Source: Clostridium sp. CAG:780 (lineage in GTDB: Bacteria > Bacillota > Clostridia > TANB77 > CAG-508). Taken from it: 64,000 nucleotides of DNA. The stretch is from positions 26,135 to 90,134 of the forward strand of contig HF994471.1 of NCBI GenBank assembly GCA_000434195.1, read 5' to 3'. Made by a program: the position numbers and the translations under genes. Under the pieces are notes generated by a model. It searched no databases and had not been told where the DNA came from. It saw only the letters and a list, made by a program, of their open reading frames with translations. Below, one piece after another: positions 2,316-45,111 of the stretch (position 1 is its first letter; each line of letters starts with the position of its first letter).

Positions 2316-2390
2316 TGGTGACCCCTACGGGAATCGAACCCATGATTCAGCCTTGAGAGGGCTGCGTCTTAACCGCTTGACCAAGGGGCC
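2316..2390 (-). tRNA. tRNA-Glu (anticodon CUC)
   Basis: The minus-strand 75-nt sequence GGCCCCTTGGTCAAGCGGTTAAGACGCAGCCCTCTCAAGGCTGAATCATGGGTTCGATTCCCGTAGGGGTCACCA folds as a cloverleaf. It has a 7-bp acceptor stem, anticodon loop CTCTCAA, a GGTTCGATTCC T-arm and an encoded CCA. It closely resembles Bacillus tRNA-Glu. Confidence 0.85.
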
Positions 2391-28877: not shown

Positions 28878-28958
28878 AGTTAAGGTTAACTGTAACTTTT
28901 AGAAAAAGCAAGACTTCACGGAGGTCTTGTGCGTTTTTGAAAGAGGAGGTTAGTTCAA

Positions 28959-29819
28959 ATGAAATTCTCGATCATCCTGCCTTGTTTCAACAGTAAGTCG
29001 TACATCAACAAGTGTGTTGATAGCATTCTCTCTCAGTCCTTCTCGGATTATGAGTTGATTGTTATTGACGATGGTTCTACTGACGGAACTTCTCAGATTT
29101 TGGACGAATACGCATCGACCTATCCTCACATTCATGTCCACCATTTTAGCAATGCTGGTGTTTCTATCGCTCGGAAGCGTGGCATCTCCCTTGCTACTGG
29201 TGAGTACTCTATCTTTGTAGACTCTGACGACACCATTGAACCTAATCATCTGGAGAATCTCAATGCGGGTATCATTAAGCACAACCATCCTGATATCATT
29301 CGGTGTCAGGTCAATCTGATTAATGACTCTCCTCACAAAGATTCTCAGCGGTACAATTTCACGTCGGGTATTGACATTCTTAATTCTGGAATCGACTCTC
29401 TGAAAATGTGGTCCATTCCCGGTAAGAAGTATGCAGTTTACTGGCTCTTTGCTTTTAAGACCAGTATTTTCTCGAAGGTTACGTTTCATCGTACCTTGAG
29501 ATGTTACGAAGATGTGGCACTGATTCCCATTCTGATTGCCAGCTCTCCTCGCGTCGTTACTATTAATCATGCTGGTTATAACTATCTTTGCAATAACTCT
29601 GATAGTTTGACCAATACTATTAGTCTCGAGGCTGAGTGTCAGCGGGCTGACGATTTCTATGAGGCCTGTCAGTTTGCCATCAAAAATTTTTCTAATCTTG
29701 AGCAGGTGTCGGAGGCCGATATTTCCTTCTTTGTTGACGACTACAATCGTCGACTCTTGAACAAATACGAGTCTCTGCCTGAGGTTCTGAAACCTCAGTT
29801 TATTCACTGGTTCAAGTAA
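28959..29819 (+). CDS. Family-2 glycosyltransferase (GT-A fold), on a compositionally foreign island of about 40-45 % GC
   Basis: MKFSIILPCFNSKSYINKCVDSILSQSFSDYELIVIDDGSTDGT has the DxD motif. The GC content and codon usage (CTG, TCG, CGG) differ sharply from the flanking DNA, which is under 30 % GC. Confidence 0.85.
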   Translation: MKFSIILPCFNSKSYINKCVDSILSQSFSDYELIVIDDGSTDGTSQILDEYASTYPHIHVHHFSNAGVSIARKRGISLATGEYSIFVDSDDTIEPNHLENLNAGIIKHNHPDIIRCQVNLINDSPHKDSQRYNFTSGIDILNSGIDSLKMWSIPGKKYAVYWLFAFKTSIFSKVTFHRTLRCYEDVALIPILIASSPRVVTINHAGYNYLCNNSDSLTNTISLEAECQRADDFYEACQFAIKNFSNLEQVSEADISFFVDDYNRRLLNKYESLPEVLKPQFIHWFK

Positions 29820-29828
29820 ATAAACGCA

Positions 29829-29869
29829 AATTCCCTATTTCTTAATTAGAAATAGGGAATTATTTTTAT
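29829..29869 (+). terminator. Rho-independent terminator
   Basis: AATTCCCTATTTC-ttaatta-GAAATAGGGAATT-atttttat. Confidence 0.8.
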
Positions 29870-29909: not shown

Positions 29910-30749
29910 TTATTTTAATCTAAATTTATGACTTATTTTATAATAATATGGTTTAATATCTGTTAATATATCTTTTACCCATATAATGTTTCCGTCATTA
30001 TCTTTATATTTTATGTTTGGAAATGTTCTTAACATTTTTTCATCTGTAAATATTGTGTTTGACAATTTTTGTACAAATTTGTTTTCTAAAACTTCCTGAC
30101 TTACCATGAGATTTTTGTCTTCTACAAGATTTAAGTCATATTTTTTTGTAAATCTTGTATAAAATACTTGAAGTCCAAAAGCTGTTATTAGCAAATCTAA
30201 AATTAATAATATTGTTCCACCTATTGTTAGTACACTAAATAGTTTTTTAGGAATTTTGTCTATAAATTTTTCTATATATGGATTTATTAACCTCATTAAT
30301 ACTAGTGCTAATATTCCCCAGAATATTGTAAATAACAAACATATTCTGCCATTTATATCAAATGGCATGTTTGAATAATCCCACCATTTAATATGAAATA
30401 CTATTTCTCCTAGCCAGCTTATCACATATTCTACTATTGAGCCTTCTATTGCTCCTGCTAAGAATAATGTCCAGTTTTTCTTTTTAAATTTTTGAAGCCC
30501 TGGTATCATTACTGCCGCACCAAGTCCATATATACAGCAGAATGGTCCGTACAAACAGCTTTGTCTGCTCTCAATTACTCCTTTTGTAAGCATTCCAAAT
30601 ATAGTTTCTATTATAAATCCTAGAAAACTATATATTATAAAGTAGGCTAGTATTCTTTTAAATGTAATTTTTACGACTGGATCTTCTATTACTATTTTGT
30701 TTTGTATTTTTTCTTTTATTTTTTCTTCTAATTTTATTTCATCTATCAT
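29910..30749 (-). CDS. DUF1113-family polytopic membrane protein (putative ABC-transporter type IV family)
   Basis: FLGFIIETIFGMLTKGVIESRQSCLYGPFCCIYGLGAAVMI matches the conserved core of that family. It is not a prepilin peptidase. Confidence 0.45.
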   Translation of the reverse strand: MIDEIKLEEKIKEKIQNKIVIEDPVVKITFKRILAYFIIYSFLGFIIETIFGMLTKGVIESRQSCLYGPFCCIYGLGAAVMIPGLQKFKKKNWTLFLAGAIEGSIVEYVISWLGEIVFHIKWWDYSNMPFDINGRICLLFTIFWGILALVLMRLINPYIEKFIDKIPKKLFSVLTIGGTILLILDLLITAFGLQVFYTRFTKKYDLNLVEDKNLMVSQEVLENKFVQKLSNTIFTDEKMLRTFPNIKYKDNDGNIIWVKDILTDIKPYYYKISHKFRLK

Positions 30750-30763
30750 ATTCTTTCTCCAAG

Positions 30764-32575
30764 TTAATATCCAAAATATGCATTTACTAAATACAAATCA
30801 TATCTAGCTCTTGCCAAGGCAGTTAGATAATATTTTTGTAGGTTCACTCCATTTAAGTTTGTAATGTTTACTTCATCTCCATTTAAGTCTGTTATATTTC
30901 CATACGATTCTCCATATTCGTCATGGTCTCTTCCGAATTTGTCAATTACTTTTCCTGCTATAATGTCATCTGTTGAGTATGCATCTGATGCTGCAACTAT
31001 ACAGTCATAGCATGCTTCATATGGTTGAGGATAGAAATAAGCATATTTTCCTTCGTTTATGTTTACTTCATTACTCTCTAATATTTGAGCAAGAGCATTT
31101 ACATCTTCTCCTGTTAGAGATATAGATTTTCTCTTAAAATCTATTGTTGAATATGCTCCCTCTAATGTCATTCTTCCATAATTTAAAGCTGTAATTAAAG
31201 CTTTACATCCTGGCTTATGATATTCTATTTTTCCTTCATCATCTTTTGATAATATATATATTGCATCATTTGATACTGTTTCTTTGTTTGCATTGTTTGA
31301 AACAACACAGTAATTATTATATATTTTTCCTCCTATTGGGAATCCTTGTAAAAATACCAATTCACATATGTTGTTTTCAATGTTGTCCCAATCTCCTTCT
31401 GTTAATTCTGGCATCGAGAATTCATATCCTGCTGACGAATGATCTGTATATGTTTTCATAGCTTGGATTAAATTTGTTTCTATTGAATATCTTATTACAT
31501 TTCTTCTTTGTTCATTAAATGGTGAACTTGAAAGTAATGGATTGTTCTGTGTTCCTCTTGTATCAAATATTCTAGCATTATCTAATTGTGTTGCAAATCT
31601 CTCTGGTATTTTATATCCTTCTGCATCACATGCCCATTGTTGAGTTACATTTTTTAAATTTTCATTTACCCATATTGTGAATTCAGCTGCTTCTTGATAA
31701 AATTTCTTTGCACTTTCTGAACTTAGTTGCTTTGTTGCTGCATCATAGTAAATGTTTAATGCATTTACTGTTTCTGATGAACTTATATAATCTTTTCTGT
31801 ATTGAGAACTATATTTAAAATATTTTCTACTTTCGTTTGTAGGATTTTTTTCTAAATATATTTTTTGGTTATTATATACCACATATTGGTATCTTCCTTG
31901 ATATTTTGCTTGGTTGATTGTTTCTGCACTTGCATCATCATCTAATGTTACTAAGTTTTCTTCTAGCACTTCACTTAAATTAACGTAATCAGCTATTCTT
32001 GCTGGGTCTTGAGCTATTTGCTCTGCCTCATCATATGATATTAAATGTCCTGTTTTTGTAACATAATTTCCTTCTACTGTGCCTATAATTGTTATGGTAT
32101 TATCAAGTGTATAATTTACCACAAAATCATTGTGTCTACTATTTATATCAATATATCTGCATGAGTATGATGTAAATGGTTTTAGCCCGTATTTAAAAGC
32201 TTGTAATTCTGTGTCATAGTAATTTGTGTATATATGGTAGCCATCATACAAAGTGAACACAATAGCTGGTGTGTATTCTTTTAGTTCCTCTTTTGTATAC
32301 CCCTTTACTTCTAGGTTTGTTGCAAGAGAAGAATAGAATACGTTAATAGATGCTTCTATGTCTCTTATTTTCGAGTTTGCTATATCTGAAAACTCGTTGT
32401 TTTGAGTGTTTATTTGAAACGCTCTAATAGAGTCATGTGCAGCATTTACTAAATTTGCATCATATATGGTTTGTGTTTTTATTGTTTCCAAATGTGAGCT
32501 TACATAATTTGATAATACTAACGATATTGGAAGTATTATTATTATAAAAATTATCGCTATGTGTTGTAATTTCAT
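30764..32575 (-). CDS. Large (603-aa) N-terminally anchored extracellular protein, last gene of the pilus-like operon (candidate tip or adhesin component)
   Basis: A single N-terminal transmembrane segment (IAIIFIIIILPISLVL) is followed by an extracellular domain rich in Tyr and Asn. I recognise no further motif. Confidence 0.35.
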   Translation of the reverse strand: MKLQHIAIIFIIIILPISLVLSNYVSSHLETIKTQTIYDANLVNAAHDSIRAFQINTQNNEFSDIANSKIRDIEASINVFYSSLATNLEVKGYTKEELKEYTPAIVFTLYDGYHIYTNYYDTELQAFKYGLKPFTSYSCRYIDINSRHNDFVVNYTLDNTITIIGTVEGNYVTKTGHLISYDEAEQIAQDPARIADYVNLSEVLEENLVTLDDDASAETINQAKYQGRYQYVVYNNQKIYLEKNPTNESRKYFKYSSQYRKDYISSSETVNALNIYYDAATKQLSSESAKKFYQEAAEFTIWVNENLKNVTQQWACDAEGYKIPERFATQLDNARIFDTRGTQNNPLLSSSPFNEQRRNVIRYSIETNLIQAMKTYTDHSSAGYEFSMPELTEGDWDNIENNICELVFLQGFPIGGKIYNNYCVVSNNANKETVSNDAIYILSKDDEGKIEYHKPGCKALITALNYGRMTLEGAYSTIDFKRKSISLTGEDVNALAQILESNEVNINEGKYAYFYPQPYEACYDCIVAASDAYSTDDIIAGKVIDKFGRDHDEYGESYGNITDLNGDEVNITNLNGVNLQKYYLTALARARYDLYLVNAYFGY

Positions 32576-32653: not shown

Positions 32654-33184
32654 TTAGTTTTTACCATTTACAGTAACAATTCCTGCATATTGTACAGCAA
32701 TTTGATACGTGTCATTTCCTGCAATTCTATAAAAGAAGTTTCTTAATGTCTGTGCTATTGTTGTATTTGTATTTTTAACAGTTACAGAGACTCTATCTCC
32801 TTCTTTTAACGTTATTTTATGTTTTTTATTGTCTTTTAAAACGCTTTCTAATTGACTTGTGTATAGGTTATAATAAATGTTTTCACCTATTTTAGTTGTT
32901 TCTGCTTGTGTTGTTTTTACTCCTATATTTTCATCCATTATTTGTACCATTAACTCTACATCAAAAGCATTTCCTGTTGATGTAATTGTTTGAATGTACT
33001 TATCATAATCGTCTAATGTTAATTCTCCAGTTGTTCTAACTTTATCTACAAAATCAGTAGTAGCTGTTTGTACTGTTAATTGTGAGATGTTATCTGATTT
33101 TTCAGATACAGACATCAAAGGGAAAACAAACATTAGCATTGCTGCTAAAAATATAGCTATAATTGTTACAAAACTATCTCCCAT
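32654..33184 (-). CDS. N-terminally anchored small protein (pilus-associated, minor-pilin-like)
   Basis: MGDSFVTIIAIFLAAMLMFVFPLM is followed by a soluble domain. The gene sits within the cluster. Confidence 0.35.
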   Translation of the reverse strand: MGDSFVTIIAIFLAAMLMFVFPLMSVSEKSDNISQLTVQTATTDFVDKVRTTGELTLDDYDKYIQTITSTGNAFDVELMVQIMDENIGVKTTQAETTKIGENIYYNLYTSQLESVLKDNKKHKITLKEGDRVSVTVKNTNTTIAQTLRNFFYRIAGNDTYQIAVQYAGIVTVNGKN

Positions 33185-33237: not shown

Positions 33238-33927
33238 CTAATTTATCATCACATAGGTGATTACTTTTTTAGTAGTAGTCTTATTTCCTCTGATACCCGA
33301 GTTTTCGTCATCTTCTGCTTTTACAGTTACAACTTCTCCAACCATTTCAACAAATTTAGCCTGGTTAAATCTTTTTGCAAATCCTATTGAAGTGTAATCC
33401 ATGTTTTCATATGTTTCTCCTGCTAGAATCGCATCCAGATTCTTTTTGACCTCTGATATTGCTCCAGTCCAAGGTTCTCTTCTAGATTGTTCTTCTTTTA
33501 AATCAAAAGAGCAAATGCTTGTACTTGTACCAGTATCATCAAAATCGTTTTTATACCCAGTGCTCCATAGTTCTGGATCTGTTTGGGTTTTGTATATTTC
33601 TATTGGTCTTCCTATTGAAACGTTAGTTATTTTTCCATCTGAGTCATAAGAAGCAGTTCCTGACCTAAATGTAATTTTTATGTCTTCTTTACTATATCTA
33701 TAGAGAGTAGGGATTACTGTTTCCATCCCTACTATTCTATTTCCTAAATTATCTACTTCTATCCCATTAGACTCTGCATAAGAATAATATTCTGTTGGGT
33801 CTGTTAGATGTAGCATTAAGTCTGATGTTTGTCTAGCTTGTGAAAAGATATACATTGTTAAGCTTAATGCTAATACTAATAGTATAACAGCAAATGCTAA
33901 CATTGAAGCTTCTACTGCATTTTCCAT
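33238..33927 (-). CDS. Pilin-like paralog 4 (N-terminus MENAVEASMLAFAVILLVLALSLTMYIF)
   Basis: It shares the conserved MEN-x-x-x-A-x plus hydrophobic helix N-terminus with three neighbouring genes. AAGGAAAAG ribosome-binding site. Confidence 0.45.
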   Translation of the reverse strand: MENAVEASMLAFAVILLVLALSLTMYIFSQARQTSDLMLHLTDPTEYYSYAESNGIEVDNLGNRIVGMETVIPTLYRYSKEDIKITFRSGTASYDSDGKITNVSIGRPIEIYKTQTDPELWSTGYKNDFDDTGTSTSICSFDLKEEQSRREPWTGAISEVKKNLDAILAGETYENMDYTSIGFAKRFNQAKFVEMVGEVVTVKAEDDENSGIRGNKTTTKKVITYVMIN

Positions 33928-33950
33928 AATTTACTTTTCCTTATAGTTTA

Positions 33951-34382
33951 TTATTGTTTTACTATGTAAGCAACTGTTATATATCCTGATTTATTGTATC
34001 CGAAAGATACTTTGTATGTTAGTCCTGTTTTATATGATGCTACTGAATAATCTTTAACTTTATCTGTTGTCCAATTAGCATCATCAGGATCTCTTGTTGC
34101 ATTTCCTGCTGCATCTTCGATTAATATCAATCTAGATGTATCATCTTGATTTACTCTGTTATGATTGATTATTGCACCAACTAATTGTCTTACATCTGTT
34201 CCTGTTCTAACTCCTTCATAGCTTATAAATTCAGCATTATATGCTTGTGCTTTTTGTGGATCTAGGTTTGTTCCTTGTGCTGCTCCTGATGCTTGTTGGT
34301 ATATATACATACCTAACGCGATAATTAAAATTGATAATATTATAGCTCCTGCTATAATTAATGCTTTACTTGCATTCTCCAT
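33951..34382 (-). CDS. Pilin-like paralog 3 (143 aa), a candidate major subunit
   Basis: The N-terminus is MENASKALIIAGAIILSILIIALGMYIY. It has the strongest ribosome-binding site of the paralogs (AAAGGAGGA) and an AT-rich promoter-like region upstream, so I take it as a candidate major subunit. Confidence 0.45.
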   Translation of the reverse strand: MENASKALIIAGAIILSILIIALGMYIYQQASGAAQGTNLDPQKAQAYNAEFISYEGVRTGTDVRQLVGAIINHNRVNQDDTSRLILIEDAAGNATRDPDDANWTTDKVKDYSVASYKTGLTYKVSFGYNKSGYITVAYIVKQ

Positions 34383-34467
34383 AAATAAATCCTCCTTTAG
34401 TTTTTATATTTAATATATTTTTTAATTTTTATATTTCCTTATGAAATATAAAATATTAATAACTTAA

Positions 34468-34896
34468 TTATATTTGCTCAAAATACATGTATTTAACATT
34501 GTTTGTATTTTGATGATATTCTATTTTTGTGCATTTAAAGCTTGTTGCTCCAAAAAGTATTAAAAATTTTTGTTCTCCTGATTTTTCTATTGCTTCCATT
34601 TTTATTATTTGTTCTTGCTCTTTGAATTTAATTTCTATTATTATCGAGTTTTTATTATTATCTATATAATGTCCTTTTTCGTCTTTATCTACTGCATTTT
34701 TTTCATTGCTGTCTACTGCTTTATTTATAATAGATATTACATCTGTTCCTAAAACTTCTTGGTTATAAAAGCTTTGATATGCCCTATTATTCTGACTGCT
34801 TTCTTTTTCTGCTCTTTTTATGTTATAAAAGCTATATGTAATAATTGCTATTACTACCAGAAAAATAGCTACTATAAATATAATATTTCTCTTCAT
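34468..34896 (-). CDS. N-terminally anchored small protein (143 aa) interleaved with the pilin-like genes
   Basis: The likely start MKRNIIFIVAIFLVVIAIITY is at 34896; the ORF track extends to 34944. Confidence 0.35.
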   Translation of the reverse strand: MKRNIIFIVAIFLVVIAIITYSFYNIKRAEKESSQNNRAYQSFYNQEVLGTDVISIINKAVDSNEKNAVDKDEKGHYIDNNKNSIIIEIKFKEQEQIIKMEAIEKSGEQKFLILFGATSFKCTKIEYHQNTNNVKYMYFEQI

Positions 34897-34971
34897 ATCT
34901 GCCTTTCTTAAAATAATTATATCATTATGTTTTTTATTATGCAATCATTATTTGACATATTTTTTAATATT

Positions 34972-35487
34972 TTATACTGGTTTAAATATCACTTTTTTTA
35001 CTCTTTTAGTATATTGATCTATTAGAACACTACAACTATAATCTTTTACTTGATAGGTTCCATCTTGCATTGTTCCAATTTCACTTTTCATAAATTTTAT
35101 ATAATCATCTGTTGATAATGTTTCAAAGTTACGCTCTCCATTAATAGCTGATGTATCAATAGATATATAGAATGTTCCTTCCTTCTCTTTTTCTTCAAGA
35201 CTATCCGTTCCAAAGTCATAACTTTGATTGTTTTGTTGTGCAAGATTTGCCAAGCTCACTATCTCACTTGCTTTGCAAGTATTTTGCCAATTTCCATTTT
35301 CATCTTTATAGCTCTCATATTGGGTAAACTTGGTATTAAATTCAGTAATGTTTTTTTCTTCAAGCCTTGCTTGTATTAGAGAACTATAATCCCCAAAAAC
35401 AGTGTATAAATATGCAATCAATGACAATATTAGAATTCCTACTAAAACTGAAGCTGCCATTAATAATGCTTTACTTGCATTTTCCAC
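34972..35487 (-). CDS. Pilin-like paralog 2 (N-terminus MENASKALLMAASVLVGILILSLIAYLY; GTG start)
   Basis: A GTG start at 35487 follows an AAGGAGGA ribosome-binding site. The N-terminus is conserved and the C-terminus is variable. Confidence 0.45.
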   Translation of the reverse strand: MENASKALLMAASVLVGILILSLIAYLYTVFGDYSSLIQARLEEKNITEFNTKFTQYESYKDENGNWQNTCKASEIVSLANLAQQNNQSYDFGTDSLEEKEKEGTFYISIDTSAINGERNFETLSTDDYIKFMKSEIGTMQDGTYQVKDYSCSVLIDQYTKRVKKVIFKPV

Positions 35488-35507
35488 TTTTATAGTCCTC
35501 CTTGCTT

Positions 35508-36146
35508 TTATTTATCTTTGAACATTATTTTTATAATTCTACCATTTCCAGAATCATATTCTGTTACGTCGTCATATTTAAATGTCTTTCTTGCAAAATC
35601 AGTTTGTTCTTCCACATATTTTTTATAAGTTGTTCTGTTTGTTTTTAATTTGGTATATTCCGATTCAGAGAAATCTGATCTTGCTTTTACTGTCTTTTCA
35701 GTTTCTTTATCACTTAACTTAGACCAGTACGAAATGCTTTTTCCAAATACAGTAATGTCTGCTTCTTTTATCTTTTTTACTAGTTTTTTATATTGTTGGT
35801 CAAGACTTGTACCAGAATATGTTCCTGCTACAAGGTATTGCCCATTAAGCACTCCTGTACTTATTTTTACTTCTAACTCTATTTCTTGATAACCATCTAC
35901 AGCTTTTCTTTCATTATAGTTTATTACTTCATTTGCTAGTGAAAGTATTTCACTTCCATAAACAGTATCTTTAGCATATGACTCAAAATTTATATTAAAT
36001 TTCGATAATTGGCTTGCTTTTTCATTTTTCTGCTCAATATTTTTTTGCTCTCTTATTTGATTATAACCAAATACTAGAAGTGATAATATAAGAACTCCAA
36101 TTAATACACTGGCAGCTATTTCTAAAGCTTTTGTCATATTTTCCAT
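35508..36146 (-). CDS. Pilin-like paralog 1 (N-terminus MENMTKALEIAASVLIGVLILSLLVFGY)
   Basis: The N-terminal about 28 aa are conserved. The gene lies immediately downstream of the TadB/C-like gene. Confidence 0.45.
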   Translation of the reverse strand: MENMTKALEIAASVLIGVLILSLLVFGYNQIREQKNIEQKNEKASQLSKFNINFESYAKDTVYGSEILSLANEVINYNERKAVDGYQEIELEVKISTGVLNGQYLVAGTYSGTSLDQQYKKLVKKIKEADITVFGKSISYWSKLSDKETEKTVKARSDFSESEYTKLKTNRTTYKKYVEEQTDFARKTFKYDDVTEYDSGNGRIIKIMFKDK

Positions 36147-36161
36147 AGTTCATATTCCTTT

Positions 36162-38246
36162 CTAATATTGATTTTTCATTGCTGTCATAGTATTGAATGA
36201 TGATGTCATACTTGTTAATCCTATAAATACTAGTGGAATAATTAGATATCCTACAAATAGTCCAACCATTGGCGCAAATCCTATTACTTTTCCAATTAAT
36301 CCCTTCTTTGAGATTAATCTGTCATTTGATTCTTTTCTTCTTGCTTGATAATATTCTCTTTCTGAATCTAGTTCATCAAATGCTTCTGCGATCGGTATTT
36401 TTTCTACTGCAGCTTGCATGCTTTCTATTAATCTTATAAATTCTTTGTAGTTTATTTCATCTTTCATTTGTTCTAGAGCTTCCCAAGGTCCACTCTCATA
36501 GTTGTTTACACATCTTGATATTGGCTCTCTAAATATATTTGAATATCTTTCTAGCCATTCTAATATCATTTCTACGTTTACTCTCTCTATTCTCATAAGC
36601 ATCAATATGATTGTCTGGAATTGCATTACTTCGTTTTCCATTTCCATCTTTCTCATTTTTGCCTGGAAGAATAATAGTGCTACTGGTAAATTGTATCCAA
36701 TTACTGCAAATACCATTGCTAAAATCATTTCAAACCAGCTTAAATACTCGCTATTAACTTGTCTCAATTTTTTCAAAACTCTTTCTGCCGCTGTTTTAAT
36801 TTCATCTGGTTGTGCATTTGCATAATCTTTTGATTTTTTCATTGCTTTTTCTATATCTTCTTGAGTTGTTTTTGTTTTTCCTTTAAACATGTCTAAGAAT
36901 CTATTGTCACTCGCAGTTAGCTCTTCTGCTTTTTTCAAGTCTTTTCCTGTCATTTCTCCTACTAGATTGAATGTTGATGTAGGTTCTGTGTATATGTATT
37001 CTATCTGCATTTTATGTAGGTATCCAAATATTAGTAAGGAACCTATAAATACAGTTATTGTTAATAATATTCTTCTTTCATATATCCAATGAATTTTATC
37101 TTTTGAAGCAGCATCTTTCATAAGATTCTTCATTTTTCTTCTTTCTTTTGTTCCATCTTTTGGTATGAATAAGTCTACGATTTTCTTTACTAATGGTATT
37201 TTGTATATTTTTTCTTCCCAAGGATTATCTGTTTTTGTATCAATAGTTGTTGAACCATTGTCTTTTAGTTTTCTTGTTAAAATATAACATACAAATGTTA
37301 GTATAACCAATAGTAATTGAACTATCATACCTTGTTTTCCATAGTAAAACGATTTTGTGAATGAGAATTCTTTTACTGCCCAGTTTTTTATTGGTTCCAA
37401 TGCTAGTAATGGCACAATCGCTATTACTGATAAGCTTTGGAATACATAATTTAATTTATCTCTTTTTAATATTTCTAGTTGCATCTCTTGGCTTATATTG
37501 TTTAAGTTCTTCAAGTATAAAGATGTTTTATCTACTGTTCTATCTCCAAATTCTTTCGTAAGATACGATATACCAGCAAATTCTTTTAAGAAGCTGTTTG
37601 GTGCAATGTCGTAATATTTTTCTAATTCTCCTTCCGGATCATCAGATATTAATATTTCGTATATTTTCTCTGCTTGTCTAGACATTTCTGGTGCACTATC
37701 ACCTTGTGCAACCTGATATATTGCCTCTTCAACCATGTTAAACTCGTGGTATGCATGTCTTATTTCTGCAAAGAAATCTATTTGTTGAATTAGTAGCTTA
37801 TTGTCTATTTTGTCAACCATTCCATCTACTAATGTATCTATCATAAATAATTCAAATATCAGTAAAATCGATAGCAATAGTCCATTGCTTTTTGTAATAA
37901 ATATTATTGCTAGTGTTATTGGAATTATTATCAACAATGCTTTTGTTAATATTTCCGAAGTCTGTTTTCTTGTTAAATACTCATCATCAATGTTTATTAT
38001 TTCTAGTCTTCTTCTTATTTTAAATAGATATCTTTTTATAAAAGGAGACCTCAAATATCTAACATATAGCTTTTGATATAATATCTCTTTCGAGAATTTT
38101 TGCTCCTTTGTTCCTTTTCTTAATTGTCTAATTTGTACTATGTCTGATGATTGTGTTTTCTTTTTTAATAACAAGAATGCAACTACAATACCAGCAAGTA
38201 TCACTGCTGCTCCAATCATCATGTATAATATAATATTTCCATTCAT
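36162..38246 (-). CDS. Fused TadB/TadC-like platform protein (two T2SS-F-like domains, 694 aa)
   Basis: Polytopic membrane protein with two cytoplasmic helical domains, sited next to the secretion ATPase. Its 694-aa length fits a TadB-TadC fusion. Confidence 0.5.
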   Translation of the reverse strand: MNGNIILYMMIGAAVILAGIVVAFLLLKKKTQSSDIVQIRQLRKGTKEQKFSKEILYQKLYVRYLRSPFIKRYLFKIRRRLEIINIDDEYLTRKQTSEILTKALLIIIPITLAIIFITKSNGLLLSILLIFELFMIDTLVDGMVDKIDNKLLIQQIDFFAEIRHAYHEFNMVEEAIYQVAQGDSAPEMSRQAEKIYEILISDDPEGELEKYYDIAPNSFLKEFAGISYLTKEFGDRTVDKTSLYLKNLNNISQEMQLEILKRDKLNYVFQSLSVIAIVPLLALEPIKNWAVKEFSFTKSFYYGKQGMIVQLLLVILTFVCYILTRKLKDNGSTTIDTKTDNPWEEKIYKIPLVKKIVDLFIPKDGTKERRKMKNLMKDAASKDKIHWIYERRILLTITVFIGSLLIFGYLHKMQIEYIYTEPTSTFNLVGEMTGKDLKKAEELTASDNRFLDMFKGKTKTTQEDIEKAMKKSKDYANAQPDEIKTAAERVLKKLRQVNSEYLSWFEMILAMVFAVIGYNLPVALLFFQAKMRKMEMENEVMQFQTIILMLMRIERVNVEMILEWLERYSNIFREPISRCVNNYESGPWEALEQMKDEINYKEFIRLIESMQAAVEKIPIAEAFDELDSEREYYQARRKESNDRLISKKGLIGKVIGFAPMVGLFVGYLIIPLVFIGLTSMTSSFNTMTAMKNQY

Positions 38247-38284: not shown

Positions 38285-40204
38285 TTATGCTTCTTCTTTC
38301 ATCATATCAGCATCTCTATGTGCTTCAATTCCCCAATTTTTCTTAACGAATTTCTTGAACTCTTCAGCATCTGTATCATCCATGTTGTTTAGCATAGCCT
38401 TGATATTTTCTTCTGATATTGGGTTTGTTAGTACATATGTACCATCATGATATTCTAGTATATTTCTGTATTGGTATAATTCTCTGTTTGTTGTTTTTGT
38501 AAAGAACATTGTTGCATTATCCATGAATTTTTCTATTTTCTTTTCTGTTGTTTTTTCTTTTCTGTAATCAAATGTATATTCGTTTCTTTCTTCTACTGGT
38601 ATACATTCTGTTATTCTTTCTATGTATCTTCTTCCTCTGAAGTCCTTTACTAAGTGGATATCAAAGTTTAATACTTGTACAACTTGCTCTTCTGCTGTTC
38701 TTTCATCTTTGAACACTCCTGCTCTAAGCATTGAGTTTCTTAGTGCTGTAACTAAGTCTGGGAATGTTTTAGCGTGGTGAGTAAATAATGTAAATTTAGA
38801 AGCAACCTGTGCAGATTGGATCATCCAAGATGCTACGGGGTCAGTTGCAACCTCACCGATGATGTTAACAGAACCATCAGTCTTTTTCTGAACGTCCAAG
38901 CAGGCCTGTCCAGAAATTGTTTCTGTTTCACGCATTGATAATATGTTTCTTGTTGGATATATTTTTCTTAAGTGAAGCTCGAATGCAGTTTCTGTAATAC
39001 GAAGGTTCATTGTTTCGTATATGTTTTCTATCATCGCCATAAGCATTGTTGTTTTACCACAACCCTGCTCACCAGTAAGCGATATGATTCTTGCTCCTTT
39101 TACTAAGTATTTTAATAAATCTATTGTTTCGTCTTTTCCAGGGAATTTTACTATTTGTTCTAGTGTTGCTCTCTTTACGTCGAACTTTCTTACGAAAAAT
39201 GCCCATGTTTCTGACATGCTTGGTCTAACAACAACGACACGAGAACCGTCTTTCATTTCATTGATTTTGTAACCATTTGTGTCTGATAATTGTCCTGGGT
39301 TATTGAATTTGTATATATTCTGACAAACTCTCTTTAATTCTGCTTCTGTTCCAAATGACAAGAATGCAAGTCTTATTGATTTACCACGGAACATTATCCA
39401 AATACTATCACAAGCACGTGGTACTTTGTGTTCTACTATTTGTCCTAAATAATCTCCATCTGTTTGTGCTACTTGGCTTAAAAAGCTTTCTGGAAGTCCA
39501 GATACACCACCAGATATACCATCTATGTTCATGTCTCTTATTTCATCTATACTGCTATATCCTTTGTAATGTTGATATATTCTTTGTACAACTATGCTTA
39601 ATTTATCTTGGAATGTTAATGCAAAGTTTTCTTTTTCATATATATCTGAAATTTCTTCTGGCGTTATTACGTAAGAAGGTTTTGATTCTCCTGCCACATA
39701 TTTTAACTCGTCTAATTTGTATTTCTTTATTATTTCTGATAAAGCTTCATATCCGAATTCAGATTTATACATATATAGTATAATATCAAATTTATCTTGT
39801 GCTGTTAAAAGTGATGGTACATCAAAAGGAATTGCTTTTGATACATTTATCTCGTCAACTCCATATTCGTTGTAAAGCATGTCATATATTAATTCCTTAA
39901 TATATTTCTTATCATTTACATCTCCATATGTACAGCCTTTTAACGCTTTTTTCAATTCGTATTTCTTGTTCTTTCTTCTTTTTAATTCTTCTTCTGAAAG
40001 ACCTATATCATATAAATTGATTTTTGTGATTTCGTCTAATCTCTTCTTTACAAATTCTGTCATTGTGCTTAATGTGTATGTTGCATCATCTACTTGAATT
40101 TGTTCTTCAACTTCTTGGTTTTGTTTGTTTGTTATGAACTTGTGAACAATCGCAACTGCTACACCTATTACAATGGCCATTAATATTAGATTAGTTATAT
40201 TCAT
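38285..40204 (-). CDS. CpaF/TadA-like secretion ATPase (VirB11 superfamily) with an N-terminal TM anchor and a roughly 300-aa N-terminal extension
   Basis: Walker A LTGEQGCGKTT, a Walker B-like NIIGEVATDP and a His-box-like FTHHAKTFP are present. The N-terminus is MNITNLILMAIVIGVAVAIV. Confidence 0.65.
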   Translation of the reverse strand: MNITNLILMAIVIGVAVAIVHKFITNKQNQEVEEQIQVDDATYTLSTMTEFVKKRLDEITKINLYDIGLSEEELKRRKNKKYELKKALKGCTYGDVNDKKYIKELIYDMLYNEYGVDEINVSKAIPFDVPSLLTAQDKFDIILYMYKSEFGYEALSEIIKKYKLDELKYVAGESKPSYVITPEEISDIYEKENFALTFQDKLSIVVQRIYQHYKGYSSIDEIRDMNIDGISGGVSGLPESFLSQVAQTDGDYLGQIVEHKVPRACDSIWIMFRGKSIRLAFLSFGTEAELKRVCQNIYKFNNPGQLSDTNGYKINEMKDGSRVVVVRPSMSETWAFFVRKFDVKRATLEQIVKFPGKDETIDLLKYLVKGARIISLTGEQGCGKTTMLMAMIENIYETMNLRITETAFELHLRKIYPTRNILSMRETETISGQACLDVQKKTDGSVNIIGEVATDPVASWMIQSAQVASKFTLFTHHAKTFPDLVTALRNSMLRAGVFKDERTAEEQVVQVLNFDIHLVKDFRGRRYIERITECIPVEERNEYTFDYRKEKTTEKKIEKFMDNATMFFTKTTNRELYQYRNILEYHDGTYVLTNPISEENIKAMLNNMDDTDAEEFKKFVKKNWGIEAHRDADMMKEEA

Positions 40205-40228: not shown

Positions 40229-41074
40229 TTATACTTTAGCTTGTAGTTCTTTTAACTTAAATAATATGTTATCACATGTCTTTTTTGCTTCTTGTATAAA
40301 TAATACATTTTTATCTGTTTGATCTGTTAAGCTTCTATATTTTAAAAAGTAATCTGCAACTTTTCCTTCTGAAGCTGCTTCGCTGAACAAAGTGTTATAT
40401 GATATTGCCGATATTGTTCTGCTTTCTTTTAAATATCTGCTTGTATTTTTTGTGTTGTATTTTGAATATCTGTCATATTTTCCTAATAATAATAATGATC
40501 GATTCATTTTAAATACTGGATTTTTTTCTCTTAGTCTATCAAATTCGTTCAACGAATCCATGCCTTGCTTAAATGTTATTACTATTGCATCCGATGCTTG
40601 AAGAATTGCTCTTTTGTGTTCTTCCTTCATTCTTTTATCTATATCTATAAAAACTATATTATAATTTTTATCAGCAATTTTAACTAGTTCAGGATAGTAC
40701 TGTGTAATTGAATCATACGCATCTCTATGAGTTGTGCTTGGTGCTACTAGTACATCCAATCTTTCTCTAAAAACTACCTTTGCATAGTCTGCAACAACGT
40801 TTGTAGATGTTCTATTGCTTTGAAGAACTTTTACCAATCCTTCTATTCCGTTGTTCATTCCGACGTCTCTGGTTCTGGTTCCTAATATATCTTTTAACGT
40901 GTCATCTTTTTCTTGTTCCCAAAAGCAATTTTCTACTGTTCTATCTTTGAACCCAGTTGCTACTTCTAATATTTTGAAGTTATGATTGATAGCCATAAGT
41001 GTTGCTATTGCTACCGAAGCCAATGTTTGGCCTGTTTCCTTTTCGCTATCACTCCAAAAAGATACTATTGCCAT
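40229..41074 (-). CDS. CpaE/TadZ-like ParA-fold protein with a degenerate Walker A (paralog 2)
   Basis: VSFWSDSEKETGQTLASVAIATLMA replaces the canonical KGGVGKTT motif, so ATP binding is doubtful. Confidence 0.4.
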   Translation of the reverse strand: MAIVSFWSDSEKETGQTLASVAIATLMAINHNFKILEVATGFKDRTVENCFWEQEKDDTLKDILGTRTRDVGMNNGIEGLVKVLQSNRTSTNVVADYAKVVFRERLDVLVAPSTTHRDAYDSITQYYPELVKIADKNYNIVFIDIDKRMKEEHKRAILQASDAIVITFKQGMDSLNEFDRLREKNPVFKMNRSLLLLGKYDRYSKYNTKNTSRYLKESRTISAISYNTLFSEAASEGKVADYFLKYRSLTDQTDKNVLFIQEAKKTCDNILFKLKELQAKV

Positions 41075-41075
41075 A

Positions 41076-41774
41076 TTACATTCCTCTTTCTAATTGTTTA
41101 AATGCTCTTTTTACAGCATTTGATCTTTCATCATGCACTATTTCTGATGCTAGATAAACGAGTGCATCTTTGTATTCTGTGCTTAATCCTTTATATTTTA
41201 TTTTTTCTGTTCTTTGGTTTTCCATTATTACTTCTTGATCACTTGTTTGTAATGGAAAATATATTTTTTCGTCTTGCCATTTTATTTTATAACCTAATGA
41301 TAGATAGTTTAGATATTCATCTTCCTCATCTGACATTATATTTGAAAAGTATATTTTCGTTAATTGTACCGGTAATTTTATTCCACTCAAAACTTCTAGT
41401 CCTTTTTTTAGTGAGAATAAATCTGCAGAAGTTACAAAATAGTTTCTATTTGCTTCATATATTCCAAAGCTCTCTATTGATTCAGCTTTATCCATGTCTA
41501 TCATTATATAGTCATATGTTAGGGCTGCCGTTTCTGGCATCCCTAAATATCTTTTTATTCCATTGTAGTCTGAAAAGCCAACAGCTACATCTATTCCTTC
41601 ATACTCTGTTACATACGACATCGTCGGGCTAATAACTGGAACAACGTATTTAGCTTTTTGATTTACAGTTGAGTCAATTATTAATACTTTTTTGCCCATC
41701 TCGACTAAAATTCTAGAAACATATATCAAGAAATCTGTTTTGTCAAATGTTCCAATAAAGCCTATTTTCTCCAT
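41076..41774 (-). CDS. CpaE/TadZ-like ParA-fold protein with a degenerate Walker A (paralog 1)
   Basis: IGFIGTFDKTDFLIYVSRILVEMGKKVLIIDST has MinD/ParA-like topology but lacks the GKT/S motif. Confidence 0.4.
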   Translation of the reverse strand: MEKIGFIGTFDKTDFLIYVSRILVEMGKKVLIIDSTVNQKAKYVVPVISPTMSYVTEYEGIDVAVGFSDYNGIKRYLGMPETAALTYDYIMIDMDKAESIESFGIYEANRNYFVTSADLFSLKKGLEVLSGIKLPVQLTKIYFSNIMSDEEDEYLNYLSLGYKIKWQDEKIYFPLQTSDQEVIMENQRTEKIKYKGLSTEYKDALVYLASEIVHDERSNAVKRAFKQLERGM

Positions 41775-41799: not shown

Positions 41800-42705
41800 T
41801 TAATTTCCTGCTAAAGAATCTAAGTAAGATTTTCTTTGTTCTGTTGTTGTTGATATATCTTTTGCTACTCCTGATTCAACTCCTGATGTTGCTTGATTTT
41901 CATCCACATCAGAAACTTCTGAATTTATGCTGTCTCTGATTGATCTATAGGTTTGATATCTATTGTACATTGCTGTTTTAGCTTCTTGTACAACATTTGG
42001 ATTTTGAGTTATTAAGTTGATTGTTTCTGTACTTGGTACATATGTAGGTGTTGCTTTTTCTTGTGTTCCTGGCTCTACATATTTTGCAGTATACAACATT
42101 GCACCTTTCATTTTATAAGCTTCAACTATTGCATTTGATAAAGATACTGTTTCATCTTCTGTTAATTTCATCCATATTGTATTTAAAGAATCAACACCTT
42201 CAATTTGTGGTATTTCTATTTTCTTTTTAGATATAACAATATAATCTAGTCCAGAAGGCATTCTTAGTCTTATATCAATATAATCCTCAGATGCGATTTG
42301 ACTTGATATTTTTATCATATTATATTCTTGAACTCTTAAGTCATTTGTAAGTGGACTGTCTGATTCTGTTATCATAGAATCTGTTATTATTGTTCCTTTT
42401 GTTAAATCTATTTTAGCTATTGTGTTTTCTGTTAAAGCAGATGCTTTTACTGTATTTGCTGGTGCAGCTGATTTATCTGTTGTTACAGTAGCTAATTTAC
42501 TTGCATCTATTGTATCTCCTGATTTAACATCTGTTTTTAAAGCATATGTTATAACAAGGCTTGCTTGTCTTTCTTCTTCAGCCTTCTTCATGTTTAACAT
42601 ACTGTAAAGTAAGAAAGCAACAACGATTGCCATTATTAAAAATGTTATTAATACTCCTAATATAAATGAGTTTCTCGCTTTTTTTTGCATTGGGTTTGTA
42701 GCCAT
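41800..42705 (-). CDS. CpaB/RcpC-like pilus assembly protein (N-terminal TM plus SAF-like domain); first gene of the operon
   Basis: The N-terminal anchor ILGVLITFLIMAIVVAFLLY is followed by a SAF-like region and a second beta-rich domain. AGGAGGAG ribosome-binding site. Confidence 0.4.
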   Translation of the reverse strand: MATNPMQKKARNSFILGVLITFLIMAIVVAFLLYSMLNMKKAEEERQASLVITYALKTDVKSGDTIDASKLATVTTDKSAAPANTVKASALTENTIAKIDLTKGTIITDSMITESDSPLTNDLRVQEYNMIKISSQIASEDYIDIRLRMPSGLDYIVISKKKIEIPQIEGVDSLNTIWMKLTEDETVSLSNAIVEAYKMKGAMLYTAKYVEPGTQEKATPTYVPSTETINLITQNPNVVQEAKTAMYNRYQTYRSIRDSINSEVSDVDENQATSGVESGVAKDISTTTEQRKSYLDSLAGN

Positions 42706-42769: not shown

Positions 42770-42802
42770 ATATATTAAAAAACAACAGATATTATCTGTT
42801 GT
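42770..42802 (-). terminator. Rho-independent terminator (palindrome ACAACAGAT-aat-ATCTGTTGT plus T-run) after the upstream gene
   Basis: On the minus strand the palindrome is followed by TTTTTTAATATA. Confidence 0.7.
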
Positions 42803-44172: not shown

Positions 44173-45111
44173 TTAATTATTTATTTTTGTTTGTTCTTCT
44201 GTTGTTTTTTTCTCGCTTTTTATCTTTTTTATATTTTTTAATCTTTTAATTTTATTTTCTTTTTTATTCTCTAGTCTATCTGTAACTATATTTTTGATTA
44301 ATATTTTCTTCAACGCTTCTTCTTTTACATCTGCTATAAGTGTTCCATCTTTTGCTATTGAAACTTTTCCAGATTCTTCTGATACAACTATTGCTATTGC
44401 ATCATATTCCTTTGATATTCCAACAGCTGCTCTATGTCTAGTTCCTAAGTCCTTTGATATATCTGTGCTATTTGCCAGTGGTAATATACAAGCTGCTGCC
44501 ATTATTTTATTATTATTTATGATTACAGCTCCATCGTGAAGAGGTGTTTTTGGTACAAATATATTTACTAACACTTGTGGCGATATTTCGGAGTCCATTT
44601 CAATCCCAGTTGCCACTATATCACTCAAACTTATATCTCTTTGTATTACAATTAAGGCTCCTGTTTTTGTTTTTGCCATTTCTTCTACTGCAATAACTAT
44701 TTTATATATGTTCTCTCTTGTTCTTGCTTCCAAGCTTTTTTCCATTCCAAAGAAGTTTGTTAATTTATTTGTTCCTAGCTGTTCTAAAGCTCTTCTAATT
44801 TCTGGTTGGAATATCACAACTAATGCTATAACTCCAGATGGCAAGAAGGCTGTTAATACAGAGTGTACTATATTTAAGTTTAGCAATCCACTTATCCAAG
44901 TTATTAATATAAAGAATACAATTCCTTTTATAAGTTGTATTGCTCTTGATTTTTTTGCTAGTTTTAGTATTTTTACTATTATGTATATTACTATTGTTAA
45001 ATCTAATATTAGTGAAACCAACCTTATTGGATGCTGTTGCAATAGACTAAAATATTCTGATATGTTTTCTCCCCATATTGTTGCTATTTCTGTTATAAAA
45101 TTTTCTTTCAT
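44173..45111 (-). CDS. cdaA: Diadenylate cyclase CdaA (membrane-anchored DAC domain)
   Basis: N-terminal transmembrane segments are followed by DAC-domain motifs DGAVII and GTRHRAAVG. Confidence 0.85.
   Translation of the reverse strand: MKENFITEIATIWGENISEYFSLLQQHPIRLVSLILDLTIVIYIIVKILKLAKKSRAIQLIKGIVFFILITWISGLLNLNIVHSVLTAFLPSGVIALVVIFQPEIRRALEQLGTNKLTNFFGMEKSLEARTRENIYKIVIAVEEMAKTKTGALIVIQRDISLSDIVATGIEMDSEISPQVLVNIFVPKTPLHDGAVIINNNKIMAAACILPLANSTDISKDLGTRHRAAVGISKEYDAIAIVVSEESGKVSIAKDGTLIADVKEEALKKILIKNIVTDRLENKKENKIKRLKNIKKIKSEKKTTEEQTKINN

Follow-up and report, generated by a model that had tools for sequence, protein, structure and literature searches.

The TANB77 pilus gene cluster of Clostridium sp. 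CAG:780 and a probable class III-type leader in its four MEN proteins

Introduction

A pilus gene cluster of uncultured gut bacteria was described by Kim et al. in 2024 (Nat Commun 15:10726, PMC11680825) and termed the TANB77 pilus gene cluster; it was stated to be exclusive to TANB77, of which CAG-245 is a genus. Its proteins 927-938 were assigned as CpaB, TadZ, CpaE, TadA/CpaF, a protein made of TadC and TadB halves, and seven "pilin-like" proteins, with sizes of 358, 231, 280, 640, 693, 165, 170, 143, 146, 237, 178 and 621 amino acids (aa). The present work deals with a 12-gene cluster on the minus strand, running from 42705 to 30764, in a stretch of 64,000 nucleotides of Clostridium sp. 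CAG:780 DNA (assembly GCA_000434195.1, contig HF994471.1, positions 26,135 to 90,134 of the forward strand), the whole of which is referred to as the window. This cluster is the one that Kim et al. described, and both the kind of system and this instance of it were already known; the genes run in the same order and their products of 301, 232, 281, 639, 694, 212, 171, 142, 143, 229, 176 and 603 aa show nothing materially different. Four of them begin with the residues M-E-N and are called the MEN proteins below. They are considered here, with a probability of about 0.75, to be prepilin-like subunits of a divergent Tad-type (type IVc-like) machine of the monoderm TANB77, which would carry a class III-type signal with a leader of seven residues.

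The assignments of Kim et al. (PMC11680825) were obtained in different ways. Protein 927 was found to be structurally homologous to CpaB, 928 was placed in COG1192 with structural homology to TadZ, and 929 showed structural homology to CpaE, while the ATPase was listed with one transmembrane helix and the fused TadC+TadB platform was deduced from predicted structures. Proteins 932-937 were called pilin-like by virtue of their context and topology, neither sequence nor predicted structure having given a match, and a signal peptide was predicted for 934. The N-terminal quarter of 938 resembled TadE/PilV in predicted structure, and recombinant 938 was reported to activate dendritic cells via TLR4 and to improve anti-PD-1 responses in mice. 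A shared N-terminal motif, a leader, a peptidase or homology among the heads is not mentioned in that paper, whose text does not once use the words peptidase, leader or motif, and in full-text literature no paper was found to mention MENASKAL, with which the 143-aa MEN protein begins, or DUF5704, a domain that recurs beside plasmid-borne homologues of the cluster.

The closest well-described relatives are the Tad/Flp (type IVc) systems of Caulobacter, Aggregatibacter and Rhizobium, with which the cluster shares a CpaF/TadA-family ATPase, TadB/TadC domains, a CpaB-like SAF protein, probable ParA-like TadZ/CpaE proteins and a group of clustered pilin-like genes. There are differences as well. 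The subunits of the MEN family are 140-230 aa long and bear a globular head, whereas Flp measures 60-64 aa in the two Rhizobium/Sinorhizobium loci that were read, and they contain neither the Flp motif of G followed by xxxxEY nor a Flp Pfam match. TadB and TadC are fused, the ATPase, which falls under the Pfam cut-off, has a membrane helix and is extended by about 260 aa at its N-terminus, and no sequence similarity to TadE/F/G was detected with small-set profiles. In addition, the cluster contains no secretin and no tadV/cpaA peptidase, both of which are present in the Rhizobium and Sinorhizobium loci.

A second likeness is to the archaeal type IV pilins and archaellins, cut by PibD, EppA or FlaK, in which a short leader with [KRDE][GA] precedes the hydrophobic stretch, Glu5 is not obligatory and several paralogous subunits share the N-terminus. 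In contrast with these, the host is bacterial, no peptidase was found near the MEN clusters, the ATPase matches CpaF among solved structures with no FlaI at E <= 0.01, and the CpaB- and ParA-like partners are Tad features. An archaellum-like motor was accordingly rejected.

Among Clostridia, a Tad-like locus on plasmid pCLK of C. botulinum Loch Maree encodes an ATPase that belongs to the same superfamily (24% identity, E = 1e-19); platform genes and several small pilin-like genes come after it. Unlike the proteins in question, its pilins possess a classical basic leader (...KKGG then LSQLLSVV), its platform proteins are separate and its ATPase has 468 aa. Five small proteins were read there (L092:15426-17684), each with a basic leader ending in GG (or GSG), then LS, then a hydrophobic stretch. 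Identity with the pXO16 "tip" conjugation system was also considered and was not substantiated.

Organization of the gene cluster

The cluster houses a CpaB-like SAF protein, two ParA-like proteins, a CpaF/TadA-like ATPase, a fused TadB/TadC-like protein and seven proteins (F to L) that each consist of a short N-terminus, one membrane helix and whatever follows it. The genes are designated A to L in the order of transcription, and the protein numbers are those of Kim et al. (PMC11680825), in which the MEN genes F, G, I and J correspond to the pilin-like proteins 932, 933, 935 and 936.

Gene A, 41800..42705, minus strand: 301 aa, CpaB-like, N-terminal membrane helix and SAF domain; protein 927.
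Gene B, 41076..41774, minus strand: 232 aa, ParA/MinD-like with degenerate P-loop, probably TadZ-like; protein 928.
Gene C, 40229..41074, minus strand: 281 aa, second ParA/MinD-like protein with degenerate P-loop, probably CpaE-like; protein 929.
Gene D, 38285..40204, minus strand: 639 aa, CpaF/TadA-like ATPase with N-terminal membrane helix and extension of about 260 aa; protein 930.
Gene E, 36162..38246, minus strand: 694 aa, about 8 membrane helices, putative platform of two fused TadB/TadC (T2SS-F) halves; protein 931.
Gene F, 35508..36146, minus strand: 212 aa, MEN pilin-like, probably a minor subunit; leader codons 36126-36146; protein 932.
Gene G, 34972..35487, minus strand: 171 aa, GTG start, MEN pilin-like, probably a minor subunit; protein 933.
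Gene H, 34468..34896, minus strand: 142 aa from ATG (MKRNIIF), MK and membrane helix, head paralogous to those of F, G and I; protein 934.
Gene I, 33951..34382, minus strand: 143 aa, candidate major pilin; protein 935.
Parts of gene I, minus strand: leader MENASKA, 34362-34382; hydrophobic helix L8-Y28, 34299-34361.
Gene J, 33238..33927, minus strand: 229 aa, MEN pilin-like, Glu in place of Lys at position 6, unrelated head; protein 936.
Gene K, 32654..33184, minus strand: 176 aa, conserved, M-G/S-D-S then membrane helix, non-MEN; protein 937.
Gene L, 30764..32575, minus strand: 603 aa, MKL and membrane helix, candidate tip subunit or adhesin; "pilin 938" of Kim et al.

The four MEN genes had been singled out in an earlier note made from the DNA letters, and its open reading frames (ORFs), with their positions, their lengths of 212, 171, 143 and 229 aa and a single GTG start (in the 171-aa ORF, the other three opening with ATG), were borne out by the ORF listing, as were the N-terminal strings that it quoted, which match exactly. 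This listing begins each ORF at the first ATG, GTG or TTG after a stop codon, and the MEN starts are these first codons, so that an upstream extension is impossible for all four. For gene H, the mechanical ORF opens at a TTG at 34944; the conserved start is the ATG at 34896, in agreement with orthologues of 142-143 aa, and the listed TTG is probably too far upstream, the ATG being the real start. Ribosome-binding sites of GGAGG type, which the note had claimed throughout, are clear and strong upstream of the 171- and 143-aa genes (AAGGAGGA); weaker ones, AAAGGAA and TAAGGAAAAG, precede the 212- and 229-aa genes. A Shine-Dalgarno core stands upstream of 247 of the 282 MEN/MDN ORFs across related loci.

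Of the 165 window ORFs that reach 60 aa or more, exactly these four have a MEN start, and in 84 related loci 288 ORFs with a MEN start and a hydrophobic stretch after it are found at the corresponding places in the locus; the shared N-terminus is thus far beyond chance. Each pair of paralogues has 11-17 identical N-terminal residues, of which 4-9 are encoded by different codons, which indicates that the similarity is kept by selection at the protein level and not by gene conversion.

The secretion machinery

Gene D gives the clearest link to a known family. When its ATPase was compared with the Protein Data Bank (PDB), CpaF was the best match and the only secretion ATPase (E = 2.7e-10, residues 269-539), the NCBIfam model TIGR03819 was matched at E = 2.6e-9, and PF00437 was reached at E = 1.1e-5 with 24.7 bits, just under the Pfam cut-off of 24.9 bits. 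Judged from its sequence, the protein is a divergent member of the CpaF/TadA family, and one source names it "pilus assembly protein CpaF". Residues 1-25 were predicted to form a membrane helix (MNITNLILMAIVIGVAVAIVHKF), ahead of the N-terminal extension of about 260 aa. The ATPases of type IV filaments are normally soluble.

The platform was more deeply hidden. Gene E gave no match to Pfam or PDB sequences, neither in a profile search of PDB sequences nor in per-member Pfam scans, and no T2SS-F hit; only profile-profile comparison (hhalign) with the TadB/TadC profile revealed two matches, namely residues 10-337 (92.4%, E = 5.3e-7) and residues 399-686 (93.0%, E = 3.4e-7), each of which spans the whole template. 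By this comparison gene E encodes a fused TadB/TadC platform protein.

The remaining machinery proteins are less sharply defined. Gene A matches the Pfam family SAF at E = 2.8e-4 and the CpaB set in hhalign at 88.7% over 152 columns. Gene B, conserved in 82 loci, has no Pfam match and was not detected by a small TadZ profile of 4 sequences. Gene C has weak MinD matches (E = 0.04-0.06), no match to the same 4-sequence profile, and a homologue on a Thermobacillus plasmid that is annotated ParA. Profile-profile comparison of B and C with a small TadZ/CpaE set, and of J, K, L and the other MEN families with a small TadE/F/G set, gave no signal, both being weak negatives with profiles of 4-6 sequences.

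It is this machinery, with which the MEN proteins are invariably associated, that leads us to read them as pilin-like. The proposal of the earlier note that they are pilin-like subunits of a type IV filament is accordingly upheld by the CpaF/TadA-like ATPase, the TadB/TadC-like platform, the CpaB-like protein, the conserved synteny described below and the work of Kim et al. 2024.

The leader and the hydrophobic helix

A class III signal was defined by Pelicic in 2023 as a hydrophilic or neutral leader of variable length that "invariably ends with" Gly or Ala and precedes a stretch of 20-25 residues, mainly hydrophobic, in which Glu often, though not always, stands at +5. In gene I the polar segment is M-E-N-A-S-K-A, which comprises seven residues and is followed by 21 hydrophobic residues, L8-Y28; MENASKA and then LIIAGAILLSILIIALGMYIY agree with this definition, the optional Glu5 excepted. 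The earlier note had parsed the leader as only three residues (MEN), which overlooks that the polar segment continues for seven residues and ends in Ala before the 21-residue hydrophobic stretch. Its further statement that the pattern matches neither class III nor archaeal signals does not hold either, as MENASKA ends in Ala like a class III leader and K-A-L-I (positions 6-9) agrees with the FlaFind motif. The odd MEN start is therefore better read, on this sequence pattern, as an ordinary seven-residue pilin leader ending in Ala.

Conservation across the family concentrates on this segment. Residues 1-14 are invariant in the gene I family alignment, M-E-N is invariant within TANB77, and Ala7, unchanged throughout the I alignment, shows a conservation of at least 90% in F and G and at least 50% in J. 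The FlaFind 1.2 motif, [KRDE][GA][ALIFQMVED][ILMVTAS], belongs to an archaeal predictor and is applied here to a bacterial host; the archaeal leaders are typically 6-12 residues long, and PibD cuts leaders as short as 3-4. At positions 6-9 the motif was present in 89/92 gene I orthologues, 269/269 gene I database homologues, 55/69 gene G orthologues and 40/83 gene F orthologues, the window copy of F having E at +2. The proteins H, K and L of the same cluster served as a control, in which the motif occurred at positions 6-9 in 2 of 200, both of them H (2/73 H), and at position 3 in five more H. The consensus N-terminus of the gene H orthologues is MKk....

Two orthologues of gene J (L025:16654-17259 and L030:16631-17314) seem to start inside or after the hydrophobic helix (MFNQAKF... 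and MIFVLAFTL...), with no MEN visible, for which an unusual start codon, a frameshift or a truncation may be responsible.

The heads and their predicted fold

The heads were compared by hhalign from residue 33 to the end, the first 32 residues having been removed. Under these conditions homology was detected between F and G (99.0%), G and I (97.7%) and F and I (95.6%), and the head of the non-MEN protein H joined the same family (H-F 99.5%, H-G 99.2%, H-I 95.1%). By the same profile-profile comparison the head of gene J could not be related to that of F, G, H, I or K, and that of gene K is likewise unrelated. The description of the four proteins as unrelated beyond the N-terminus, with variable heads, consequently applies to J (229 aa) alone and fails for the other three, F, G and I, which are homologous to one another and to H.

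The AlphaFold2 (AF2) model of gene I contains a helix at residues 2-33, with a predicted local distance difference test (pLDDT) score of 80 overall and 84-91 in the first 20 residues, beyond which the chain was predicted to pass through a low-confidence break into a second helix (42-53) and then a small alpha/beta head ending in a conserved C-terminal hairpin. Modelled on its own, the head reached a pLDDT of 82 and a predicted template modelling score (pTM) of 0.75. The predicted head fold gave no significant match to any solved structure, pilins included, and in the Pfam and NCBIfam scans no family was found for any MEN protein.

Relatives in gut Clostridia

The genome scan was conducted with the ATPase and one genome per species, and at least 550 genomes with a relative were found. 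The window ATPase is 100% identical to a Clostridium sp. CAG:780 protein and 90% identical to that of CAG:245, and its best 80 relatives, at 76-96% identity, all come from metagenome-assembled genomes of uncultured Clostridia, among them Clostridium sp. CAG:245 and Candidatus Scatovivens. Synteny extends over all 12 genes in about 80 genomes at species level and also in contigs of human-gut metagenomes, and the site is fixed and chromosomal, next to truA, between truA/DUF2651 and housekeeping genes. Orthologues of gene F were collected from 75 loci and those of gene K from 73 loci (32-89% identity). When the neighbours of the MEN motif in other genomes were inspected, as the earlier note had proposed, they always included the secretion-ATPase machinery in every related genome examined, and this synteny excludes a generic signal anchor that has no link to a secretion ATPase.

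Gene I stands out among the four. It has at least 1950 database homologues, and all 120 among the matches listed begin with MENASKAL; its profile, searched against 1.84 billion cluster representatives, matched 4717 families (50% identity) at E <= 1e-3, and in 150 of 150 among the listed matches profile residue 1 aligned to protein residue 1. Its ribosome-binding site is also the strongest, and at 85 bp the gap upstream of the gene is the widest. Three tandem copies of 146, 152 and 147 aa occur at L005:15862-17297, whose N-termini are identical over the 34 residues printed save for one L/A difference at position 17, and two copies occur in L057; the tandem copies of L005 look like subunit diversification or antigenic variation.

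Plasmid-borne homologues in cultivable Firmicutes

A tblastn search of plasmids with the ATPase disclosed copies that align with about 92% of its length at 37-58% identity, in Thermobacillus, Cohnella, Paenibacillus, Lysinibacillus (pBsph), Cytobacillus, Sporosarcina, Alkalihalophilus OF4, C. botulinum, C. argentinense and C. beijerinckii; these plasmid-borne loci carry the labels L085-L090 and L099-L105. By sequence homology, they contradict the published exclusivity of the cluster to TANB77. The plasmid cluster is simpler and consists of a SAF protein (the gene A homologues being annotated as SAF domain-containing proteins), B, C, the ATPase, the fused platform, one pilin, an H-like gene or a cell-wall hydrolase, K in the same position, and a shorter L of 320-342 aa. 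The single plasmid pilin is an end-to-end orthologue of gene I (98.9% over 136 columns), and the N-terminal region of gene J also aligns with the plasmid pilin family (96.8%).

The N-termini of these pilins, in which the hyphen marks the junction, are MSTNASKA-L, MSNAQKA-L, MGENARKA-L, MGENGRKG-L, MDSVTKA-I, MNNASSA-L, MEENPNLA-L, MSGSVSTA-L, MKESTSTA-L, MEESTNTG-L, MSETTATA-L, (M)ESPVVKA-I and MDSPVVKK-I. The 13 leaders are 6-8 residues long and variable in sequence, while the junction residue is A in ten, G in two and K in one, followed always by L or I. With A/G kept in 12 of 13 cases and the L/I invariable as the leader itself changes, the junction behaves like a cleavage site. Leaders that lack Lys at -2 (position 6) are followed by a Lys or Arg at +2 after the junction.

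Six plasmid loci could be read far enough downstream, and a GGDEF cyclase was found in five of them, which suggests control by cyclic di-GMP (c-di-GMP) there; a protein with SLH/stalk domains and a DUF5704 protein of about 1100 aa were found in four, and a large unnamed protein instead in the two Clostridium ones. Such large surface proteins, together with the cell-wall hydrolase that lies immediately downstream in some clusters and the lack of any known pilin fold in the heads, would suit a machine in which the MEN proteins are not filament subunits but single-pass components, or a short pseudopilus, of a Tad-like secretion or wall-spanning apparatus, with the 603-aa protein or the SLH and DUF5704 giants as candidate cargo. 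This explanation is held to be quite unlikely, for gene I is small, hyper-conserved at its N-terminus, present in tandem with diverging heads and in thousands of variants, all of which is typical of an exposed major subunit; moreover, the pseudopilins of type II secretion are themselves type IV pilins, so that the alternative differs in output and not in kind.

The occurrence of the cluster on megaplasmids of Bacillales and Clostridium, and on pTHECO01 within a few kb of a type IV coupling protein gene and a replication-relaxation gene, might also evoke a mating (conjugative) pilus of a mobile element. We regard this as very improbable indeed, because the cluster occupies a fixed chromosomal site in the window and the gut genomes, with no relaxase, coupling protein or integrase within 10 kb, all plasmids examined that carry it are typed non-mobilizable, and the recurring neighbour is the GGDEF cyclase rather than transfer genes.

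Two annotation matters were noticed among these records. RefSeq labels the pilin homologue of two Paenibacillus plasmids (L100:7404-7871 and L103:7384-7842) "ABC transporter permease", which is almost certainly wrong for a single-helix pilin-like protein. The 100-kb record NZ_CP013205.1 ("plasmid pHD02", L097/L098), the smallest plasmid entry with the cluster, had its annotation read throughout; it contains mutS, mutL, miaA, hfq, glnA, lexA, rnz and cotE, and its end falls within the pilus cluster. The record resembles a piece of chromosome that was submitted as a plasmid, and the cluster may be chromosomal in that Paenibacillus.

Prepilin peptidase and the processing of the leader

A number of observations weigh against reading the MEN proteins as cleaved pilins of a Tad-type machine. 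As to the signal, Glu is absent at +5 after Ala7, where I has Gly12 and the other MEN proteins have Ala or Ser; the leader is neutral to acidic and not basic; position -2 is not always K/R; and the FlaFind motif stands at positions 6-9 in only 11/67 orthologues of gene J (229 aa). No pilin signature (Pfam N_methyl and Flp_Fap, NCBIfam prepilin) was detected at E <= 0.1 for the four proteins, and we know of no pilus ever having been seen on these uncultured bacteria. As to the enzyme, inspection of the multi-helix ORFs of the window revealed no gene for a prepilin peptidase, none is annotated around any plasmid cluster, and phmmer searches with two proteobacterial CpaA queries through all ORFs of about 2 Mb of related loci returned self-hits only, which is a weak negative. 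Within the cluster itself, a TadV/CpaA peptidase was not found in any related locus. The PF06541 membrane protein that follows the cluster in the window was considered as a hidden peptidase and rejected, as it accompanies the cluster in only 13/84 loci. On two Clostridium plasmids (L087:26958-27446 and L090:24313-24828), lepB, the gene for signal peptidase I, lies a few kb past the downstream end of the cluster.

These features bring up the possibility of leaderless pilins, which would undergo no proteolytic processing and need no peptidase, their seven-residue N-terminus remaining in place, with Glu2 and Lys6 replacing the pairing of Glu5 with the N-terminal amine. Such an arrangement would account for the lack of a peptidase gene in the cluster, the window and the related loci, including plasmid copies that are otherwise self-contained, and for a polar segment that is very short and neutral or acidic, unlike typical basic leaders. 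It would likewise explain why M-E-N is invariant in hundreds of sequences, since discarded leaders usually vary freely, and the Lys/Arg at +2 that appears when the Lys of position 6 is missing suggests a structural charge and not recognition by a peptidase. On the other hand, the A/G then L/I junction stays constant while the preceding residues change in the plasmid homologues, which is the pattern of a cleavage site, and all type IV filaments known so far use a peptidase (Pelicic 2023). The stretch inspected amounts to 64 kb of a genome of about 1.5-1.8 Mb, and prepilin peptidase genes are often unlinked to the pilin genes. The leaderless alternative is accordingly judged rather improbable; the missing peptidase, the leader chemistry, the invariant MEN and the unmatched head keep it alive without favouring it. 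If true, it would describe the first type IV filament that dispenses with the otherwise universal peptidase, and one with a new head fold.

Proposed assembly and significance

Under the preferred reading of the MEN proteins as processed subunits of a Tad-type filament, assembly can be pictured as follows. Each subunit would be inserted into the membrane with its short leader in the cytoplasm and its head outside, a topology that Kim et al. predict likewise. The leader would then be cut after Ala7 by an unlinked prepilin peptidase, as the conserved junction of A/G and L/I suggests. The membrane-anchored ATPase, CpaF/TadA-like by homology, would drive the fused TadB-TadC platform recognized by profile comparison, whereby subunits are lifted and stacked with the L8-Y28 helix forming the core of the filament. 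The 143-aa protein is the presumed major subunit, because it is the orthologue of the sole plasmid pilin, the most conserved of the set, tandemly amplified in some species and preceded by the best ribosome-binding site. The three other MEN proteins (212, 171 and 229 aa) may join H, K and the 603-aa L in a low-abundance priming or tip complex, and the CpaB-like and the two ParA-like proteins may scaffold or position the machine. A role in adhesion or surface interaction in the gut is likely.

The cluster has been linked to a better response to cancer immune-checkpoint therapy, so that the identity and maturation of the major exposed subunit matter for biomarker and adjuvant work; the 143-aa protein, and not "pilin 938", is the probable bulk subunit and most abundant surface antigen. 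A recognizable class III-type leader makes the standard logic of pilin research applicable, that is, the peptidase and a cleavage-site mutant, and the homologous clusters in cultivable Bacillales and clostridia render an uncultivable system experimentally approachable. For the biology of type IV filaments, the system would represent a divergent monoderm variant of Tad with large subunits and no peptidase found in the loci searched. What retains interest beyond the published description is the missing peptidase, the atypical leader chemistry, the unrecognized head fold and the newly noted homologues in cultivable Firmicutes.

Boundaries and surroundings of the cluster

The limits of the cluster are suggested by two terminator-like sites.

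Terminator-like hairpin, 42782..42802, minus strand: upstream of gene A, the upstream boundary of the cluster.
Bidirectional terminator-like hairpin, 29829..29861, both strands: downstream of the PF06541 gene, the first intergenic terminator-like site after the cluster.

Within coding sequence, the same scan picked out two weak hairpins on the minus strand, one in the ATPase gene (39502-39489) and one in the PF06541 gene (30367-30347). A promoter scan performed no better than on shuffled sequence (86 against 84 expected), and an Rfam scan of the cluster found no c-di-GMP or other riboswitch. The PF06541 membrane protein ("putative ABC-transporter type IV", CmpB; 29910-30749, minus strand) follows gene L without an intergenic terminator and is probably not part of the pilus system.

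Further downstream, a 285-aa ORF at 28950-29807 on the minus strand runs antisense to a gene of glycosyltransferase family 2 at 28959-29819 on the plus strand and is most likely a shadow ORF. Elsewhere in the window, a Spo0A-like regulator (23036-23827, minus strand), a CdaA diadenylate cyclase (44173-45111, minus strand), an FtsK/SpoIIIE protein (50514-52850, minus strand) and one tRNA (2319-2390, minus strand) are encoded, and this housekeeping context confirms the window as chromosomal Firmicute DNA; its GC content is about 29%, with a constant negative GC skew.

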